Source of the DNA: Promethearchaeota archaeon
Lineage (GTDB): Archaea; Asgardarchaeota; Odinarchaeia; Odinarchaeales; JBHLKK01
NCBI GenBank assembly: GCA_048939465.1
Contig: JBHLPL010000051.1
Span: 1 to 13,268, forward strand
Direction: 5' to 3'
DNA: 13,268 nt
This document shows positions 268 through 7,107 of the stretch, piece after piece (position 1 is the first letter of the stretch; each line of letters starts with the position of its first letter). A model generated the notes under the pieces. It was not told the origin of the DNA. It did not search any database and was given only the letters and a program-made list of their open reading frames with translations. A program made the position numbers and the translations under genes.

Positions 268-1533
268 ATGAGTAGAAATCTATGGATAGTCAAGCATTCT
301 CCCAAAACGGCAAAAGAGATAATAGGTAATAGGACTGCAGTCAAGGAGCTAGTGGACTGGATTCTTTTATGGCAGAAGAAATCCCCCGCAAAACGAGCAG
401 TTCTGCTTCACGGTCCACCTGGCACCGGGAAGACAGCATCAGCTTACGCCGTGGCCAACGATCTCAATTACGACATTGTTGAGCTCAATGCCTCAGACAA
501 GAGAAGTCAAGCCGAGATTGCTCAGATTGTGGGGGCCGCTGCCAGAGAAAGATCTCTTCTGGGATCCGGTTATCGAATTGTTTTAATTGATGAGATTGAC
601 GGAATCAGTGGAACAGAAGACAGAGGGGGAATTGGAGCTCTCACCAAGATAATTAAGGAAACCAAGAATCCCATTGTCATGACGGCTAATGACCCTTGGA
701 ACGTAAAACTCAGAACCCTTCGAAGCTACTGTCGCATGATAAGCTTTCGTAGAGTCTCAAAAAGCTCGATTGCTGCTCTACTGAAAAGAATCTGTATTAC
801 TGAAGGCTTGGAAGTTGAGGAGGAAGCTGCAAAGATGATTGCTGAGAAATCAGGAGGAGACATTCGGGCAGCGATAAACAACCTACAGGCCATTGCGGAA
901 GGCAAAAGAAAGCTCACGGTCAGAGATGTTGAAGTTTTGGGATATCGCGATCGAACTGAAAACATCTTCAATGTATTAAAGGAACTCTTTTCGTCCAGGA
1001 CATTTGGCGATGCCATTAGAGCAGTAAACTCGGTTGATGTCGACCATGAAATGTTGCTCCAGTGGATTGCTGAAAATGCTGCACTGCATTTGCCCACTCC
1101 TTGGGAGCGAGCAGAAGGTTACAATGCGATTTCCAGGGCAGACATATTCCTAGGAAGAATCAGGCGGCGTCAGAATTGGAGTCTCTTGAAGTATGTGTAC
1201 GATCTTATGAGTGCAGGTGTAGCGTTGTCTATAAGAGGACCCTATCGTTGGACAAGATATCAATTCCCGTCTTGGATACTTAAGCTGAGCAGAACCAAGG
1301 GCTCCAGGAGGGAATTGAGGCAGATAGCCGAAAAGATAAAAGTCAAATGTCACACATCAATTGGGAGGGCCATACAGGATTTCATACCATTTATTGAAAT
1401 CATTTTTCGGAATAACCCTGAGCAGGCAGCCAATCTTGCCGAGTGGTTTGAGTTCACCAAAGAGGACACTGAAGCTTTGACTGGAAAAGCAAGTACGGAG
1501 AAGACTGTCCAGAAGAAGCTACTCAAAGGATAG
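268..1533 (+). CDS. rfcL: Replication factor C large subunit (clamp loader AAA+ ATPase)
   Basis: N-terminal RFC box variant WIVKHSPKT...IIGN, Walker A GPPGTGKT, ELNASD motif, Walker B VLIDEIDG, sensor-2 GDIRAAINNLQ, and C-terminal collar motifs (AD.FLGRI, WSLLKY) typical of archaeal RFC-L. Confidence 0.95.
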   Translation: MSRNLWIVKHSPKTAKEIIGNRTAVKELVDWILLWQKKSPAKRAVLLHGPPGTGKTASAYAVANDLNYDIVELNASDKRSQAEIAQIVGAAARERSLLGSGYRIVLIDEIDGISGTEDRGGIGALTKIIKETKNPIVMTANDPWNVKLRTLRSYCRMISFRRVSKSSIAALLKRICITEGLEVEEEAAKMIAEKSGGDIRAAINNLQAIAEGKRKLTVRDVEVLGYRDRTENIFNVLKELFSSRTFGDAIRAVNSVDVDHEMLLQWIAENAALHLPTPWERAEGYNAISRADIFLGRIRRRQNWSLLKYVYDLMSAGVALSIRGPYRWTRYQFPSWILKLSRTKGSRRELRQIAEKIKVKCHTSIGRAIQDFIPFIEIIFRNNPEQAANLAEWFEFTKEDTEALTGKASTEKTVQKKLLKG

Positions 1534-1608
1534 GATCATCAGCCAAAAGGAATAAGGTCATAATACGATTTTAGCAGTCTTTTATTCAGAAACTTAGGAG
1601 AGAAGGAT

Positions 1609-2748
1609 TTGGTCAATCAGCTGACAAGGATTTATGCAACAGAATTCATAAGAAGTCTGGCTCACACCATGCTGGGTATTTACCTACCAATATATATCTT
1701 GGACACTGGGTCTACCCCAACGGGATTATCGTTGTTTTTTATCCTAGTTTTCTCCTTCAATGCGATAAGCTCATTCCTATCTCTGACTTTGTTCAAGAAA
1801 AGAATGAGTCTTGGATTGTTTGTGTCACTTGTTTTCAGAGGCGTGTTCTACTTCTCAATCTTTTTGGCCATGGACTGGCAGATAATCGCACCTATTTTTG
1901 GATTTGCGGTCGGGCTTTATTGGTCATTTATAGATCTAAGCCTGATTGCATTGCCAAAAAGAGAGGAATCTGGATTAAGGATAGGTATACTCTACATGGC
2001 AATGCAGATAGCAGGAATAATCGGTCCGATAATAGGTGGATTCATAATCACAGATTTTGGTTATTCGAATCTATTCCTCATGGCGGTAGCGCTACTAATG
2101 CCGACTGCGGTTCTCGCGCTCTCGGTGGGACAGCTGAAAACCGATTTTGAGACTCCTTCTGCGCGGTTTGTAAAAGAATATTTTAAGAACAGCAGAGACA
2201 ATCGTTTGCTACTTGTATTTGTACCACTTTATGGTCTAATTACTGCTCAAATGTGGGTCTACTATCCACTGCTTCTGCGACAGTGGGGGCAAACCGAGCT
2301 TGGAATGGGTATCATCCAAACAACAGTGGGCATATTTGTTGCAGTGACTCTCATTGGTGCTGGGAAACTTTTTGACCTAAATAGGGGCCGACATGTCATT
2401 ATATCCTCGCTACTAATGCAGACCGTTTCTCTTCTGATGCTTGGAATCGCGTGGACCGTCGAGATCTTTACTGTCGCAGGATGGGTGGTCTCTCTCGCGT
2501 CCTCCTTAATGACATCACCGTTTTGGGCAACAATAGCGGGAACAACAGAAAAAAGATTCTACCCATCTCTGGTCATAATGGTCACTTCACTCCTGAACTC
2601 AGGACGAGTGGCGGCTTTTATTATGTTCGAACCCCTCTTGGCAAGAGGAGACCTAGCGCTGATTTACTTCATTGTTGCCGGAATAGCATTAGTGGGTCTA
2701 CTCGTTGCGTTCAATTTCTCAGGCTATTTCTATTCGGCAAAAAACTGA
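1609..2748 (+). CDS. Major facilitator superfamily transporter (substrate unknown)
   Basis: 379 aa with about 12 hydrophobic segments in two halves and MFS motif GIIGPIIGGFII. TTG start lies behind an AGGAG/GAAGGA purine tract. Confidence 0.85.
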   Translation: MVNQLTRIYATEFIRSLAHTMLGIYLPIYILDTGSTPTGLSLFFILVFSFNAISSFLSLTLFKKRMSLGLFVSLVFRGVFYFSIFLAMDWQIIAPIFGFAVGLYWSFIDLSLIALPKREESGLRIGILYMAMQIAGIIGPIIGGFIITDFGYSNLFLMAVALLMPTAVLALSVGQLKTDFETPSARFVKEYFKNSRDNRLLLVFVPLYGLITAQMWVYYPLLLRQWGQTELGMGIIQTTVGIFVAVTLIGAGKLFDLNRGRHVIISSLLMQTVSLLMLGIAWTVEIFTVAGWVVSLASSLMTSPFWATIAGTTEKRFYPSLVIMVTSLLNSGRVAAFIMFEPLLARGDLALIYFIVAGIALVGLLVAFNFSGYFYSAKN

Positions 2749-2753
2749 TGAGG

Positions 2754-3833
2754 CTACGAATAATTCTCTTGAAGCAGATCGAGGTGTTTGAGAGCCATCT
2801 CTGATGAGACCGATTTTTCAGCAAATCGTCTTCTTATTGTTTCCAGCAAATACTCTGGAAAGAAGGTAGGAAAGCGAATATCGGTTAGGAGGAACACCCA
2901 CTGTTTGTTGTCCCTTATTCTTAAAACTACATTGGACTCCTCAAGCCGCTTTATGATTTTGTTTGTAGCAGAAGGTTTAATCTCCAGTTCCTTTGAGATG
3001 TCAGTCACCAGCCTGGGTTCTTCTCTGAGTAGAAGAAGCATCGAATAGATGTCTGGATCCAGCATAAGCTGTGAGATCTTCAAGCTGTCTTCTTCAGTTA
3101 TTTCATATTGGCCAAAGAACTCACGTGTTGCCTCAAGATACGACCTAGCCGTTTCATCGGATGGTTTGCCTTGTTCAGCCAGTTCTACTATTTTCGCAGC
3201 GGGGCTTCTCATTACAAGAAAATCCCTTACTAGAAAGGCACACTGTCCCGGCATTCCCGCGACCCAGGACAGCACAACGAAGTTGTTTCTGGTCAAAGGC
3301 GAGACTAGCGCATCAATGCTCCTGATAGACCTTCCAGATTCTTCTTCCAGAAGATACTTCAGTTCCACTAAGGACATTGGTCCCTCCGTCAATTTGCTGT
3401 GAAGAAGGACATGAAGTTTGTCTTTGTACAGCAGAGCCAGCTGTTGCTCGTCTGTAAGTGAGGCCATCTTCAGAAGACGGTCATATGTGGATTTAAGAAC
3501 TTCTTGGAATTTAGTTGAACCGACCTGAGAAAGAACATCTTCTGCAATATCCAGCAGAGGAGCTTCGTACATCCTAGCATCCTCATCTATGTTCAGAATG
3601 AGAGCAATGAAATACTGTGGGGTTGTTTCCACGCCTGTAAAATAACTGGCAATGTTTAGATTTGCCTCCTCTAGCGAAAGAGTCAAGAAGCCTGCCTGTC
3701 CCTCTCCTACTGCATGGCTTGTGAAGATTCTCATAAGATTTTGAGCATCAATCTCAACAGTTCCTGGATATTTCGCCTCTAGGACTACTCCAGTAACATC
3801 ATCCCATTTTGCGACAAGTATACCTTCTGGCAA
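2754..3833 (-). CDS. Longin/uDENN-like N-terminal domain + tandem winged-helix protein (Asgard-type, NPRL2-like architecture)
   Basis: The N-terminus MPEGILVAKWDDVTGVVLEAKYP fits the longin/uDENN pattern (strand - W/F-D-x-x-x-G - strand - YP), followed by strands IASYFTG and QYFIALIL. Two wHTH-like segments follow (SKLTEGPMSLVELKYLLEEE; LREEPRLVTDISKELEIKPSATNKIIKRLEESNVV). Start moved from the track's GTG 3842 to TTG 3833 because SD GGAGTGA (3845-3839) overlaps the GTG and lies 5 nt before the TTG. Confidence 0.75.
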   Translation of the reverse strand: MPEGILVAKWDDVTGVVLEAKYPGTVEIDAQNLMRIFTSHAVGEGQAGFLTLSLEEANLNIASYFTGVETTPQYFIALILNIDEDARMYEAPLLDIAEDVLSQVGSTKFQEVLKSTYDRLLKMASLTDEQQLALLYKDKLHVLLHSKLTEGPMSLVELKYLLEEESGRSIRSIDALVSPLTRNNFVVLSWVAGMPGQCAFLVRDFLVMRSPAAKIVELAEQGKPSDETARSYLEATREFFGQYEITEEDSLKISQLMLDPDIYSMLLLLREEPRLVTDISKELEIKPSATNKIIKRLEESNVVLRIRDNKQWVFLLTDIRFPTFFPEYLLETIRRRFAEKSVSSEMALKHLDLLQENYS

Positions 3834-3847
3834 ACATATCACTCCTA

Positions 3848-6433
3848 TTATTCCATATTTACATCCTTCTTAATTAAATCTAACGTCTTCCTTCTTACTT
3901 CGGAAGGGAGGGCTTTAAGCTCCCTCAGTATGGTCTCCTTATCAGAATCTGAAATGCCCTTCATACTCTCAATCTCTTCTCTAAACGCTTCTAGTTGTTG
4001 ATCAGTTTCAGGTGTGTCTGTTTCCGGAACCTGCTCAACTTCATCTGTTGGGCTTCTGGCTTCTTTAGGTTGCTCATTTCTCGTTCCGATATCCTTGGTG
4101 TGGACATCTTCAGTCTGATTCTCTCGGCGGCCTTCTTTTTCTGAGTGCGACGCCTCTTCAGAGGGTATTTCAGTTTCCTCTAGCGGTGGCTCAATGGTCG
4201 GCAGTCTTGGAATTACAATAGCGTCAGCCGGACCAGTTACTTGATCAAATACGCTTTGCTGTATATCATCTCTTGTTCGTACCCCGGGTTGTTTGGGTAT
4301 CTTGCCCTTTCGAATGTCCTTCTTCATCTTCATTATCTTTCGAACTACTGCCGGAAATCTGATGTATGGGTTTAAAACCACGTAAAGAAGGGCTCCAGCA
4401 AGCCCAACAATAGGAATGATAGTAACGAATAGCCAGCCGGGAACTCCAAAGATGTACCATTGTTGCCATACGCTAATAGTCACAGTTATTTCCTGCTCCA
4501 CGGAGTAGAAGTCATGAATTACCCCAATCCTGACCGTATAATGTCCGGCCAACTCGGGGACTTCAATCTGATCTCTGTAGGGTTGTCCTTCGAGTTTGGT
4601 CATATTGTGCCAGACACCCGGCTCCCAGCTTAGCTCGTATTGCACGACTGCTGTGGAAACGTTTCCGCCTGTTATAGGGTCAACAAGCTCAACAGTGAGC
4701 CAGAAGCCTCCTCCTGCCTCAACATTCGCTTCTTGTTGGGTCGGGCGTAATAGGTTGACATCGATAAGTCCCGTTTTCCCGAAGTCCGTAGTAAGAATAG
4801 TGCCCGCTTCATATCCGTTGGTCCAGTCCACGTTAATCATGTACGGGCCGGTGAGGGAACCGTCAGGTACAACAATAACATCTGAAATCGCAATACCACT
4901 AGCATTCACAACCATGTCAACCGCAGAAGGCCATATAGAATCAGAAGGATCGGTGATGGAAATGGTTGCGTTACCAAGGTCGGTCGGAGGAAAGCCGTTT
5001 TCATCCAGCAGCCCAGCAATCACTCGAATACTATCCCCATCAGAGAAGGTGGAGCTATTCATCCACGTTCCGTTGGTCAGAACTTGGAGCTGGGCATCGG
5101 ATACATAATTCTTAGAGTTGGCTTGACAAGAATAGAGTCCGTACAGACCTATGGCAGTTGAGTTGACAGTCAGTATCTTTTTGCTTCCCAGTGTTGTGAG
5201 CGTATAATTTTCGTCCCCTGGTTGATGACTGATACCATTCGGGTCAGAAATACTGGTCAAATACCAGTCCGAAGGAATAGTCAGATTGAAGTAGTAGTCA
5301 GTGTATTTTGTAGGGCCCTCACCTCTCGGCTCGTCATATATACTCATCTCTGTTCTATGAGAAAAGGACCAAGCAACATTTGACTGGTGGTCTACTTCAA
5401 ATGCTGCAGGATTGCTGGTAGTATTGTAGGCTGCGAAGACGGTCACATTCGCCTTAAGGCTCACCTCCACCGGAGATGATGTGTTAGTCAGAAAAGTGAA
5501 ATAAAACTGCTCAAAAAGGGGGGGCGCAGCAGGCCCCCAAGCACCCGAGAATGTTACATTTCCGAAGCCATAATCTGTCGTGGATATACTATAGTTAGCA
5601 GAATCAGGAGTCTCAACTCTTAAGTCAACCTGGGACGGCTTGACTGTGGATCTCAGAACCAGAGAAATATTGTCAAAATATACCCTGTTAAGGTCACTCC
5701 AGCCACTGTAAGTTGCACCTCCTGACGTGTATCGAACCCCGATATCAATCTGAACATATTGGGTCTCAGAAAGGTTGAACACATCGGGATCAACATATTG
5801 AGCTATGTTATTCCATTGCTCGTCTAATCCAGAGTCCCGAACTGTCTTGAAGTCCAGACGCCAAACATATTCACCCCCAATAAGGGCAAAGGCTTCAAAT
5901 TCGGATCGATCAATGATGTCATTGGCATAGTAACTCAGCCTGAGCTCAGCTTCAAGAACATGTCCTCTTCCAATCACTACAGTCTCATTCCAGTAGCTAC
6001 TCTCGTCTTCATAGAACTGCCTGCCTCCACTTTGCATTGGCAGCTGGGTATAAACGCACTGATTTGCAGCCAGCCACCGGCCATCATCTACGTCGGCGTT
6101 ATCGTTTGTCTCTTGATATTGCCAAGGAGGCGAGATATAGGTAGTTCCATCTTCAAATGTGCCATTAATTGCCCAGTCCCTTAAATCTGCAAGCTCGCGT
6201 ACGTCTAAGAACACCTGGTTCCCGACCCAGCCAGCGGGGATATCTACAAAAACACTGGGGTTGGTAGGAATAGCAGCTTCCTGATCATAGTTTGTGCCCT
6301 TTGAGAATTCTACTACTTCTCGACCGAAAGCAAGAGTGCCCCCGTCGGAGTACTGAAAGCTAGGGCGACATGAGAGCAGCAAAGGGATAATAATCAAGAA
6401 AATACTCATCAGAACGTATTTTCTAGCTTTCAT
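3848..6433 (-). CDS. Large single-pass cell-surface glycoprotein with cytoplasmic tail
   Basis: Signal peptide MKARKYVLMSIFLIIIPLLLSC, then a ~640-aa beta-rich ectodomain with about 18 N-x-S/T sequons. A TM helix (GWLFVTIIPIVGLAGALLYVVL) is followed by the basic stop-transfer segment RFPAVVRKIMKMKKDIRKGK, an acidic Pro/Glu linker and a C-terminal helical module. Alternative starts are ATG 6445 and TTG 6448. Confidence 0.85.
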   Translation of the reverse strand: MKARKYVLMSIFLIIIPLLLSCRPSFQYSDGGTLAFGREVVEFSKGTNYDQEAAIPTNPSVFVDIPAGWVGNQVFLDVRELADLRDWAINGTFEDGTTYISPPWQYQETNDNADVDDGRWLAANQCVYTQLPMQSGGRQFYEDESSYWNETVVIGRGHVLEAELRLSYYANDIIDRSEFEAFALIGGEYVWRLDFKTVRDSGLDEQWNNIAQYVDPDVFNLSETQYVQIDIGVRYTSGGATYSGWSDLNRVYFDNISLVLRSTVKPSQVDLRVETPDSANYSISTTDYGFGNVTFSGAWGPAAPPLFEQFYFTFLTNTSSPVEVSLKANVTVFAAYNTTSNPAAFEVDHQSNVAWSFSHRTEMSIYDEPRGEGPTKYTDYYFNLTIPSDWYLTSISDPNGISHQPGDENYTLTTLGSKKILTVNSTAIGLYGLYSCQANSKNYVSDAQLQVLTNGTWMNSSTFSDGDSIRVIAGLLDENGFPPTDLGNATISITDPSDSIWPSAVDMVVNASGIAISDVIVVPDGSLTGPYMINVDWTNGYEAGTILTTDFGKTGLIDVNLLRPTQQEANVEAGGGFWLTVELVDPITGGNVSTAVVQYELSWEPGVWHNMTKLEGQPYRDQIEVPELAGHYTVRIGVIHDFYSVEQEITVTISVWQQWYIFGVPGWLFVTIIPIVGLAGALLYVVLNPYIRFPAVVRKIMKMKKDIRKGKIPKQPGVRTRDDIQQSVFDQVTGPADAIVIPRLPTIEPPLEETEIPSEEASHSEKEGRRENQTEDVHTKDIGTRNEQPKEARSPTDEVEQVPETDTPETDQQLEAFREEIESMKGISDSDKETILRELKALPSEVRRKTLDLIKKDVNME

Positions 6434-6517
6434 CTTGCACGCCATCAAGCAATCGCCACTTCTGTTTTATAACGCGTTAGCAAAACTCAAAGCCGTGTTT
6501 AATCTATAACATTATTG

Positions 6518-6533
6518 CTATTAAAGCATTTGT
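6518..6533 (-). promoter_or_regulatory. Putative BRE-TATA promoter for the surface protein / longin-wHTH operon
   Basis: The minus strand reads ACAAATGC TTTAATAG, a BRE-like purine motif directly before a TTTAATA box, about 70-85 nt upstream of the candidate start codons. Confidence 0.4.
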
Positions 6534-7107
6534 CAAGAGCCAACGGGTTAGAAGTTCCAGGGGTTTGCCCTTTCTTTATATGGAAAAGGCAGTATTGCCG
6601 AAGAAGATAGCTTCACGAATTCCGGCCTGAAAAAGGCGGCAAAAGGAGAGGGGGGTGGAAGCTTGAGTCGATGGGGGACACAGCCCTTCGGAGGGGGAAG
6701 GCAGTTAGGGTTTGTGGTTGCATGGATGGGGAAATTCCGTTAACCAGTTAAGCTGACAACGGGAGACTCACTCAGGAAGGCAATCCGAAGGAATTTGCTA
6801 GATTATTCAAACAAAGAATTATGGCTTCCGCAGCTCCTCTCAGGACCTAAATCATGAGCTTCCTTGAAGACGGGCTGTGATCGTTAAATCTCACTCGAAA
6901 TCCGCTGCAGATTCAAATATGCAATAGATTTCGCTTTCTTTCCGGACGCATTAATACAAGTTACGAAGGACGGTGAAGCCGCTATTTCACGGGATCTGTC
7001 GCCAATAGGTTTTGAGGAGAACGCAAATCAGGTCGAGGATATGTTTTTATGATGAAAACCGATCTCTTATTGTATTCGAATGAGTGGAGACTGAAGGTTA
7101 ATCCAAG

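Follow-up and report, generated by a model that had tools for sequence, protein, structure and literature searches.

A conserved gene pair of Asgard archaea encoding a surface protein with a cytoplasmic tail motif and a longin-winged-helix protein predicted to dock on it

The sequence analyzed here, hereafter the window, is contig C99 (13,268 nucleotides; GenBank JBHLPL010000051.1) of a 1.96-Mb Asgard metagenome-assembled genome (G000) that is 91% complete and, by its placement in the genome collection, belongs to the same order as the Odinarchaeum-type genomes. It contains two neighboring genes, termed A and B below:

3848..6433, minus strand: gene A, ATG at 6433 and stop TAA at 3850-3848, encoding an 861-aa type-I surface protein
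2754..3833, minus strand: gene B, TTG start at 3833 and stop at 2756-2754, encoding a 359-aa acidic cytoplasmic protein

Contextual analysis of B and its homologs, together with structure prediction, leads us to propose that the two products probably constitute a membrane-anchored surface glycoprotein and a dedicated cytoplasmic adaptor that docks on its tail. The proposal is based on the recurrent linkage of B genes to genes for membrane proteins that share a juxtamembrane tail motif, on a predicted contact between this motif and the best-conserved surface of B, and on the resemblance of B to the NPRL2/NPRL3 proteins of eukaryotes.

Linkage of B to tail-motif proteins in Asgard genomes

The contexts of B were sampled broadly: 60 further loci around hits to the B family were picked blind to their neighbors, open reading frames were called in them, and hidden Markov models (HMMs) were prepared for B and for the transmembrane-plus-juxtamembrane segment. 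The tail family was gathered from genes neighboring B and extended with an iterated HMM, and its core can be written as [KR][YFI]Pxx[VI][KR]K; a word-based homolog search with the tail alone returned two near-identical proteins and nothing more. Gene A itself is matched by the tail-motif model over residues 680-719 (E 6e-15). Linkage was counted for 72 full-length B genes, from 63 fetched loci and the contigs of the genome itself. A protein with a transmembrane helix and the tail motif is encoded directly adjacent to B and on the same strand in 42/72 cases and within two genes of it in a further 5/72, and in 2/72 it is fused to B, amounting to 49 of the 72 family members; the other 23 lack such a neighbor, four of them being cut by contig ends. 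As genomes encode only one to six tail-motif proteins, the expectation of adjacency by chance is well under 1%. The order A-then-B is seen in 31 pairs and B-then-A in 11, while tandem A-B-A-B arrays, in which each surface-protein gene has one B gene, give 5 with both. The initial annotation had regarded the two genes as a coupled pair, and adjacency of their homologs is indeed found in related genomes, among orthologs as well as among deep paralogs in other contexts.

The motif was recovered in 50 partner proteins of Asgard loci and in 79 of 151 genomes. The ectodomains of these partners vary widely (500-2600 aa), yet the tail motif is common to all of them. The two fusions lie side by side on contig C61 of G131: the first (L066:7053-15038) is a 2661-aa protein in which an ectodomain, a transmembrane helix and the motif are joined through an 85-aa linker to a complete B, and the second (L066:15190-16659) is a 489-aa protein with a transmembrane helix, the motif and B, but no ectodomain. 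In two Loki-type genomes B genes adjoin genes for mini proteins of 143-147 aa that consist mostly of a transmembrane helix and the tail motif (L060:8106-8537, L064:9757-10200).

The B family is present in 115 of the 151 sampled Asgard genomes. Families f4, f14 and f16 (23 genomes) have neither B nor the tail motif; the motif was not found without B in any of the genome families searched, and the families with strong B matches have the motif, a phyletic pattern that is to be read as descriptive because related genomes cannot be counted as independent. A finer correspondence emerges from a maximum-likelihood tree of the 72 B proteins. In the clade that includes the B of the window (support 96/85), 15 of 16 members lie beside tails of the [YF]P class, the remaining one being truncated at the end of its contig. 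Tails of the IP class go with a different deep clade (100/100), in 20 of its 21 members. The tail-class label changes 4 times, as against 22.7 times with shuffled labels. Taxonomy alone is insufficient to account for this match, since the Loki-type genomes that contain one of these clades also contain the other.

One alternative would be that the two products do not interact physically and that A and B are co-transcribed neighbors kept by synteny. A block comprising genes for the RFC large subunit, a major facilitator superfamily (MFS) transporter, B and A (window 268-3842) is syntenic with the Odinarchaeum-type genomes (compared in L012, L013 and L015), and being common to this genus and those genomes it implies that adjacency is partly inherited. 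However, pairs of paralogous genes, which count independently because they are located in unrelated contexts, recur in both gene orders, permanent fusions exist, B and the tail motif have a common phyletic pattern, and the clades of B match the classes of the motif. Synteny without interaction is thus highly improbable.

Predicted docking of the tail on B and the affinities of B

The cytoplasmic tail of A comprises 170 residues, which can be divided into three segments (residue numbers as in P0001):

4208..4357, minus strand: basic juxtamembrane tail motif, residues ~698-747, with the core R-F-P-x-x-V-R-K-I...K-x-I-R-K-G-K; predicted docking site for B
4007..4207, minus strand: acidic low-complexity linker, residues 748-814, predicted local distance difference test score (pLDDT) 30-38, unconserved in the tail alignment
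3851..4006, minus strand: C-terminal three-helix module, residues 815-866, pLDDT >90, specific to this ortholog group

The three-helix module (52 residues) is kept in the Odin-type orthologs, occurs in two copies in the tail of a paralog from G001 (L018), and is absent from the short tails of the Loki-type partners.

B was modeled with a mean pLDDT of 89 and is divided as follows (residue numbers as in P0002):

3459..3833, minus strand: longin domain, residues 4-128, with the succession strand-strand-helix-strand-strand-strand-helix-helix over residues 7-127 of the model
3204..3458, minus strand: first winged helix, residues 129-213, four helices and a β-hairpin; weak match to Pfam WH_Rok (E 0.089)
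3057..3203, minus strand: helical linker, residues 214-262, contributing to the surface predicted to bind the tail
2868..3056, minus strand: second winged helix, residues 263-325, closest to winged helix-turn-helix (wHTH) domains of the ArsR/MarR type
2757..2867, minus strand: two C-terminal helices carrying the conserved motifs F-F-P-E-Y and H-L-x-x-L, at the center of the groove predicted to bind the tail

Co-folding of B (alignment of 20 sequences) with residues 692-761 of the tail (alignment of 32 tails) was carried out in three runs and alongside three controls. The three runs gave an interface score ipSAE (interaction prediction score from aligned errors) of 0.84, and the highest-scoring control stood at 0.00. 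Of 80 solved complexes 58 attain the 0.84 mark, as do 2 of 110 mismatched pairs, counts that are only a rough calibration because our own alignments were used. The runs share at least 91% of their contacts, with a pLDDT of at least 74 for the partner. To our knowledge there is no solved look-alike of this complex. The predicted interface involves residues 207-248 and 323-361 of B and residues 699-747 of the tail, and leaves the longin domain uninvolved. The initial annotation had suggested that the tail may recruit the longin protein to the membrane; of this, a confident interface between the tail and the 359-aa protein is borne out by the prediction, whereas the contact is made through the C-terminal winged-helix and helical half and not through the longin domain.

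This interface is also the best-conserved part of B (mean top-residue frequency 0.65 versus 0.53) and accounts for 12 of the 31 positions conserved outside the longin domain (Fisher p 0.007). Among these are D207, R212, P214, F243, Y246, F327, P329, L354 and L357, which are invariant, and E330, Y331 and Y361, which are nearly so, as is H353; Y235 is invariant yet lies outside the predicted contacts. The two sides are opposite in charge, the tail motif being rich in lysine and arginine and B being strongly acidic, with a net charge of -18 (family range -7 to -23).

The identification of gene B as a longin-wHTH protein, made initially from the sequence, is confirmed by the fold in the model, in Foldseek searches and in VIA superpositions. 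Its longin domain superposes on a GATOR1 chain (8fw5_B; VIA Z 11.5, root-mean-square deviation 3.1, 124 aligned residues), a Lokiarchaeota longin (8yqg_B; Z 11.4) and a SEAC chain (8adl_S; Z 11.1), and longin-fold subunits of the AP and COPI coats are likewise among the structural matches. Two helix-helix-helix-hairpin units, at 131-204 and 263-318 in the model, follow it. A Foldseek search with the full-length protein gives as its top matches chains from GATOR1, KICSTOR-GATOR1 and yeast SEAC entries (E 2e-4, probability 1.0, template modeling score (TM-score) 0.24), in alignments of 320-440 columns; by length the matched chains fit NPRL2/NPRL3, and the modeled domain layout of B is that of NPRL2/NPRL3. 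Sequence searches recover no such relationship: the Pfam NPR2/NPR3 models do not match B at E up to 1, a B-family profile searched against the PDB found no GATOR1 chain and only weak matches to wHTH regulators (E 0.002-0.005), and a search of the ESM Atlas with B returned unnamed archaeal clusters alone. A scan of the genome with PF06218 found nothing, but control genomes were equally silent, so that this carries little weight.

The second winged helix raises the alternative that B is a transcription factor for the adjacent surface-protein gene, with the longin domain as its sensor and the tail contact merely tethering the regulator, in the manner of PtsG/Mlc or of anti-sigma factors. Genes for regulators often adjoin their targets, and this domain falls just under the Pfam cut-offs of MarR_2 (25.9 vs 27), MarR (24.0 vs 24.6) and HTH_5 (21.0 vs 22), as well as below that of TrmB (20.6 vs 25.6). 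The weak profile matches mentioned above are to archaeal and bacterial regulators, and the domain superposes on the repressors CzrA, SmtB and ArsR with VIA Z scores of 9-9.9. Moreover, Loki-type modules include a third gene with a true TrmB domain. However, conservation within B is lowest in the recognition helix (0.42), and the charge of this helix and the wing ranges from +6 to -5 over 20 family members, being negative in about half of them, in a protein that is acidic throughout the family. The best-conserved surface of B is instead the predicted tail-binding groove, fusions that would hold B permanently beside the transmembrane helix and motif exist, and among full-length structures B comes closest to NPRL2/NPRL3-type chains, in which the winged helices are protein-binding. 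We therefore regard a role in transcription of this kind as rather unlikely, and retain it because the helix and wing are positively charged in the clade of the window (+2 to +6, with +3 in the B of the window).

Another possibility is that binding of B to the tail serves structure or biogenesis and does not relay a signal: B would be a chaperone, a sorting adaptor or an anchor that holds, clusters or positions large surface proteins, acting for instance by longin-longin dimerization or through a link to the cytoskeleton. The coupling of the two genes is tight and stoichiometric, with overlap of stop and start in most pairs and a single B for every surface-protein gene of the tandem arrays. 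The occurrence of one tail motif below highly diverse ectodomains is more easily reconciled with a generic handling signal than with a specific response to a ligand, and the AP and COPI subunits among the structural matches point in the same direction. Against this, G000 also encodes tail-motif proteins without an adjoining B gene, and the longin domain is on a par with the interface in conservation (0.57; W13, G18 and P26 are invariant), which suggests a specific partner for the longin domain. We consider such a role a lesser possibility, though one to be kept in view.

Gene A, the A/B junction and the flanking genes

The remaining features of the gene A product are the following:

6374..6427, minus strand: N-terminal hydrophobic helix, signal peptide or anchor, P0001 residues 8-25 (hydropathy and AlphaFold model)
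4415..6373, minus strand: ectodomain, with a jelly-roll-like N-terminal domain and about five β-sandwich domains (AlphaFold model)
4358..4414, minus strand: single transmembrane helix, residues ~679-697 (hydropathy and model)

The AlphaFold model has a mean pLDDT of 80, with values mostly >90 over residues 44-676, and it agrees with hydropathy on the topology that had been assigned initially, namely an ectodomain, a transmembrane helix and a cytoplasmic tail; a further hydropathy peak at residue 509 is a β-strand in the model and no transmembrane helix. The signal peptide ends in L-L-S-C, which is lipobox-like (window 6371-6382). The ectodomain contains 18 N-x-S/T sequons where 6.2 are expected from composition, and it is probably glycosylated. 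A database copy of the protein (P0028) begins at the ATG of gene A. Orthologs with 37-70% identity occupy the same position in G044, G053, G001, G013 and G035, and HMMER, run exhaustively over 1.8 billion representatives, found about 80 relatives, many of 1000-2600 aa.

Gene A has no Pfam or NCBIfam match, whether searched whole or in parts. Foldseek searches with the ectodomain returned generic multi-β-sandwich matches alone (S-layer proteins, Eph and RPTP ectodomains, macroglobulins) with TM-scores near 0.1, including a Nitrosopumilus S-layer protein (E 3e-8, TM-score 0.12). As these fold matches are merely generic, we name no receptor or S-layer family for the ectodomain. In the comparison with archaeal S-layer glycoproteins, taken as lattice-forming proteins with a C-terminal anchor, the gene A product was seen to have a C-terminal transmembrane anchor and sequons; cultured Lokiarchaea are reported to be without an ordered S-layer (PMC9834061).

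The two genes and their surroundings in the window show the following additional features:

3839..3850, minus strand: A/B junction, a double stop TAA TAG overlapping an SD-like (Shine-Dalgarno-like) GGAGTGA
6465-6472, minus strand: TATA-like TTATAAAA, ending 31 nt 5' of the gene A ATG, candidate promoter of an A-B unit
6449-7107: divergent intergenic region 5' of gene A, 660 bp and unusually long
1609-2748, plus strand: MFS gene (Pfam MFS_1), convergent, 5 nt from the stop of B

The junction can be read directly from the sequence as it was first described: TAA (3850-3848) is followed by TAG (3847-3845), which overlaps GGAGTGA (3845-3839), and B starts 14 nt past the first stop of A, so that the genes do not overlap in the window. 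In A-then-B pairs at other loci the gap is -8 to 0 nt in 23 of 35 cases. Two in-frame starts, GTG at 3842 and TTG at 3833, are available to B. Its homologs start with M-P-E-G precisely at the TTG in the alignment, and a purine-rich GGAG/AGGTG lies 6-9 nt 5' of the aligned start in 5/5 orthologous loci, with an SD-like purine run conserved at 6/6 orthologous junctions; on these grounds B is taken as 359 aa from TTG 3833. The 14-nt gap, the SD-like run and the one TATA-like element upstream suggest that A and B are made from a single transcript, for which the TATA-like sequence would serve as promoter, and translational coupling is plausible. The flanks likewise agree with the initial description of a divergent upstream region and a convergent MFS gene. 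The upstream region contains a G-rich island (57% GC at 6600-6750 as against 43% genome-wide); as a candidate RNA it was set aside, having no Rfam match, folding no better than shuffled sequences (z -0.45) and being unconserved in relatives.

Proposed mechanism and relation to known systems

Under the tail-docking proposal, A and B would be expressed as one transcription unit and the surface protein would be inserted with its tail in the cytoplasm. A groove of B, formed by the inter-domain helices and the two C-terminal helices beside the second winged helix, is predicted to grip the basic amphipathic segment lying C-terminal to the transmembrane helix. This would hold the NPRL2-like longin domain of B at the inner face of the membrane, where it might be free to dimerize or to engage a small GTPase or a longin-bearing protein of the TrmB type. 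Any signal might have outside-in signaling, sorting or anchoring of the surface protein as its direction and purpose, and within this proposal we do not rank signaling above handling or anchoring. In the boldest version, the module would be an archaeal device for outside-in signaling and a precursor of those eukaryotic longin complexes with GTPase-activating protein (GAP) function that are recruited to membranes: the state of the ectodomain would set the hold of the tail on B, and the longin domain would set an output either by pairing with another longin protein or through a small GTPase. We put this forward only tentatively, as a low-probability extension of the docking proposal.

A candidate for a downstream partner of B, and for the second longin protein of this scheme, is C79:4377-5762 of G000 (L004:625-2010, minus strand), a 461-aa protein in which a B-type longin domain (B-HMM 1-127, E 3e-31) is fused to a TrmB winged helix (37.7 bits), along with a helical region. 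In G000 it is the best homolog of the product of the third gene that follows B in Loki-type modules, which has ~640 aa and a true TrmB domain (33 bits, above cut-off). In view of these two TrmB-domain genes, an output in transcription further downstream of B is conceivable.

Several observations weigh against the docking proposal. The orthologous A-B pairs of the same genus and of G001, G013 and G035 also keep the flanking MFS and RFC genes, and may therefore reflect plain synteny. Among the 68 assessable B genes 19 have no tail-motif neighbor, and these partnerless genes form whole clades, being followed by ~282-aa and 110-aa genes or extended to 430-580 aa; one such clade (f7 and f19; L019, L020, L021, L027, L028, L031, L033 and L034) never has a tail-motif neighbor and is always followed by the ~282-aa and ~110-aa genes. 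Conversely, four tail-motif proteins of G000 (C4:8021-10366, C62:8009-10642, C20:23810-25462 and C138:70707-74663) have no B neighbor, so that linkage in cis cannot be obligatory. B also contains, as its second winged helix, a domain resembling the DNA-binding ones of ArsR and MarR, and no GTPase gene lies within the window. The co-folding score is the model's own confidence and not a measurement, and the public sequencing runs listed are of DNA only, from mangrove or sediment metagenomes. G000 has three full-length B genes (on C99, C7 and C49), of which the C7 paralog has a sequon-rich neighbor that runs off the contig and is counted among the four cut cases; B may also serve tail-motif partners encoded elsewhere in the genome.

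The closest known counterparts of B are NPRL2/NPRL3 (Npr2/Npr3 in yeast), subunits of GATOR1/SEACIT, the eukaryotic GAP for Rag GTPases. They share with B the order of a longin domain followed by two winged helices, and they act at the membrane through another protein, as is predicted for B. They differ in that B shows no sequence membership in their families and a global TM-score of only 0.24, and in that docking on the tail of a co-encoded surface glycoprotein, predicted for B, is not known for them. More generally, NPRL2/NPRL3 proteins are defined by an N-terminal longin and two or more winged HTH repeats (Levine et al., PMC3747258). No arginine finger was identified in the B longin from the alignment: G18 and P26 of the strand 1-strand 2 region are invariant, with no proline directly after the glycine, and R38, the sole near-invariant arginine of the domain, is in helix 1. 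No adjacent Rag-type GTPase was seen, and no DEPDC5 partner turned up, though no search was aimed at DEPDC5; small GTPases with weak Gtr1/RagA matches are present in G000, outside the window.

Within the archaea, B belongs to the broad class of "NPRL2-like longin" families described as Asgard signature proteins (Liu et al., bioRxiv 10.1101/2020.10.19.343400; PMC9834061; PMC12290439), and the signature W-D-x-x-x-G...Y-P of its strand 1-loop-strand 2 part recalls the "GP motif" region treated in PMC12290439. These papers give the domain and its fusions to two-component modules, and mention no link to a surface protein or a tail motif. The initial statement that no characterized system resembles the pair thus agrees with the literature searched, in which the B-type domain class is present and neither the surface-protein link nor the tail motif is described, with the qualification that the NPRL2-like longin class of B had already been reported.

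Similar logic is seen, by analogy, in eukaryotic longin GAP complexes recruited to membranes by membrane proteins, namely C9orf72-SMCR8-WDR41, FLCN-FNIP, and GATOR1 via KICSTOR at the lysosome, in which a soluble longin regulator is placed through the cytoplasmic part of a membrane-anchored partner. In the archaeal pair, by contrast, the anchor is the tail of a plasma-membrane type-I glycoprotein from the same operon, the contact is predicted to involve winged-helix and helical elements, and no GTPase client of B is known. A looser functional analogy is offered by receptor-tail adaptors, such as integrin with talin or kindlin and cargo tails with AP sigma/mu, where a soluble adaptor reads a short cytoplasmic motif; here the binding module is not homologous, and both the motif and its predicted reader are unrelated. 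The ArsR/MarR/TrmB regulators are the closest to the second winged helix of B in sequence and fold, but that domain is below every Pfam cut-off, has a variable and often acidic recognition helix, and is embedded in a 359-aa longin protein.

Asgard archaea encode many "eukaryote-like" longin, roadblock and small-GTPase proteins, almost none of which has a known partner, and operon structure is said to help little in matching such genes (PMC10933270). The A-B module is an exception, in that a widespread NPRL2/NPRL3-like protein acquires a specific, genome-encoded partner, with a tail motif of ~50 residues and a defined groove indicated as the contact. We view it as a probable case of a longin-domain regulator being placed on the membrane by a membrane protein, of which the window holds the minimal two-gene form. 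If the binding is confirmed, the positioning of a longin platform at the membrane via a membrane-protein tail, the logic that underlies the GATOR1, folliculin and C9orf72 complexes, would predate eukaryotes, and the module would provide a handle on how the abundant surface proteins of Asgard archaea (PMC9834061) communicate with the cell interior.

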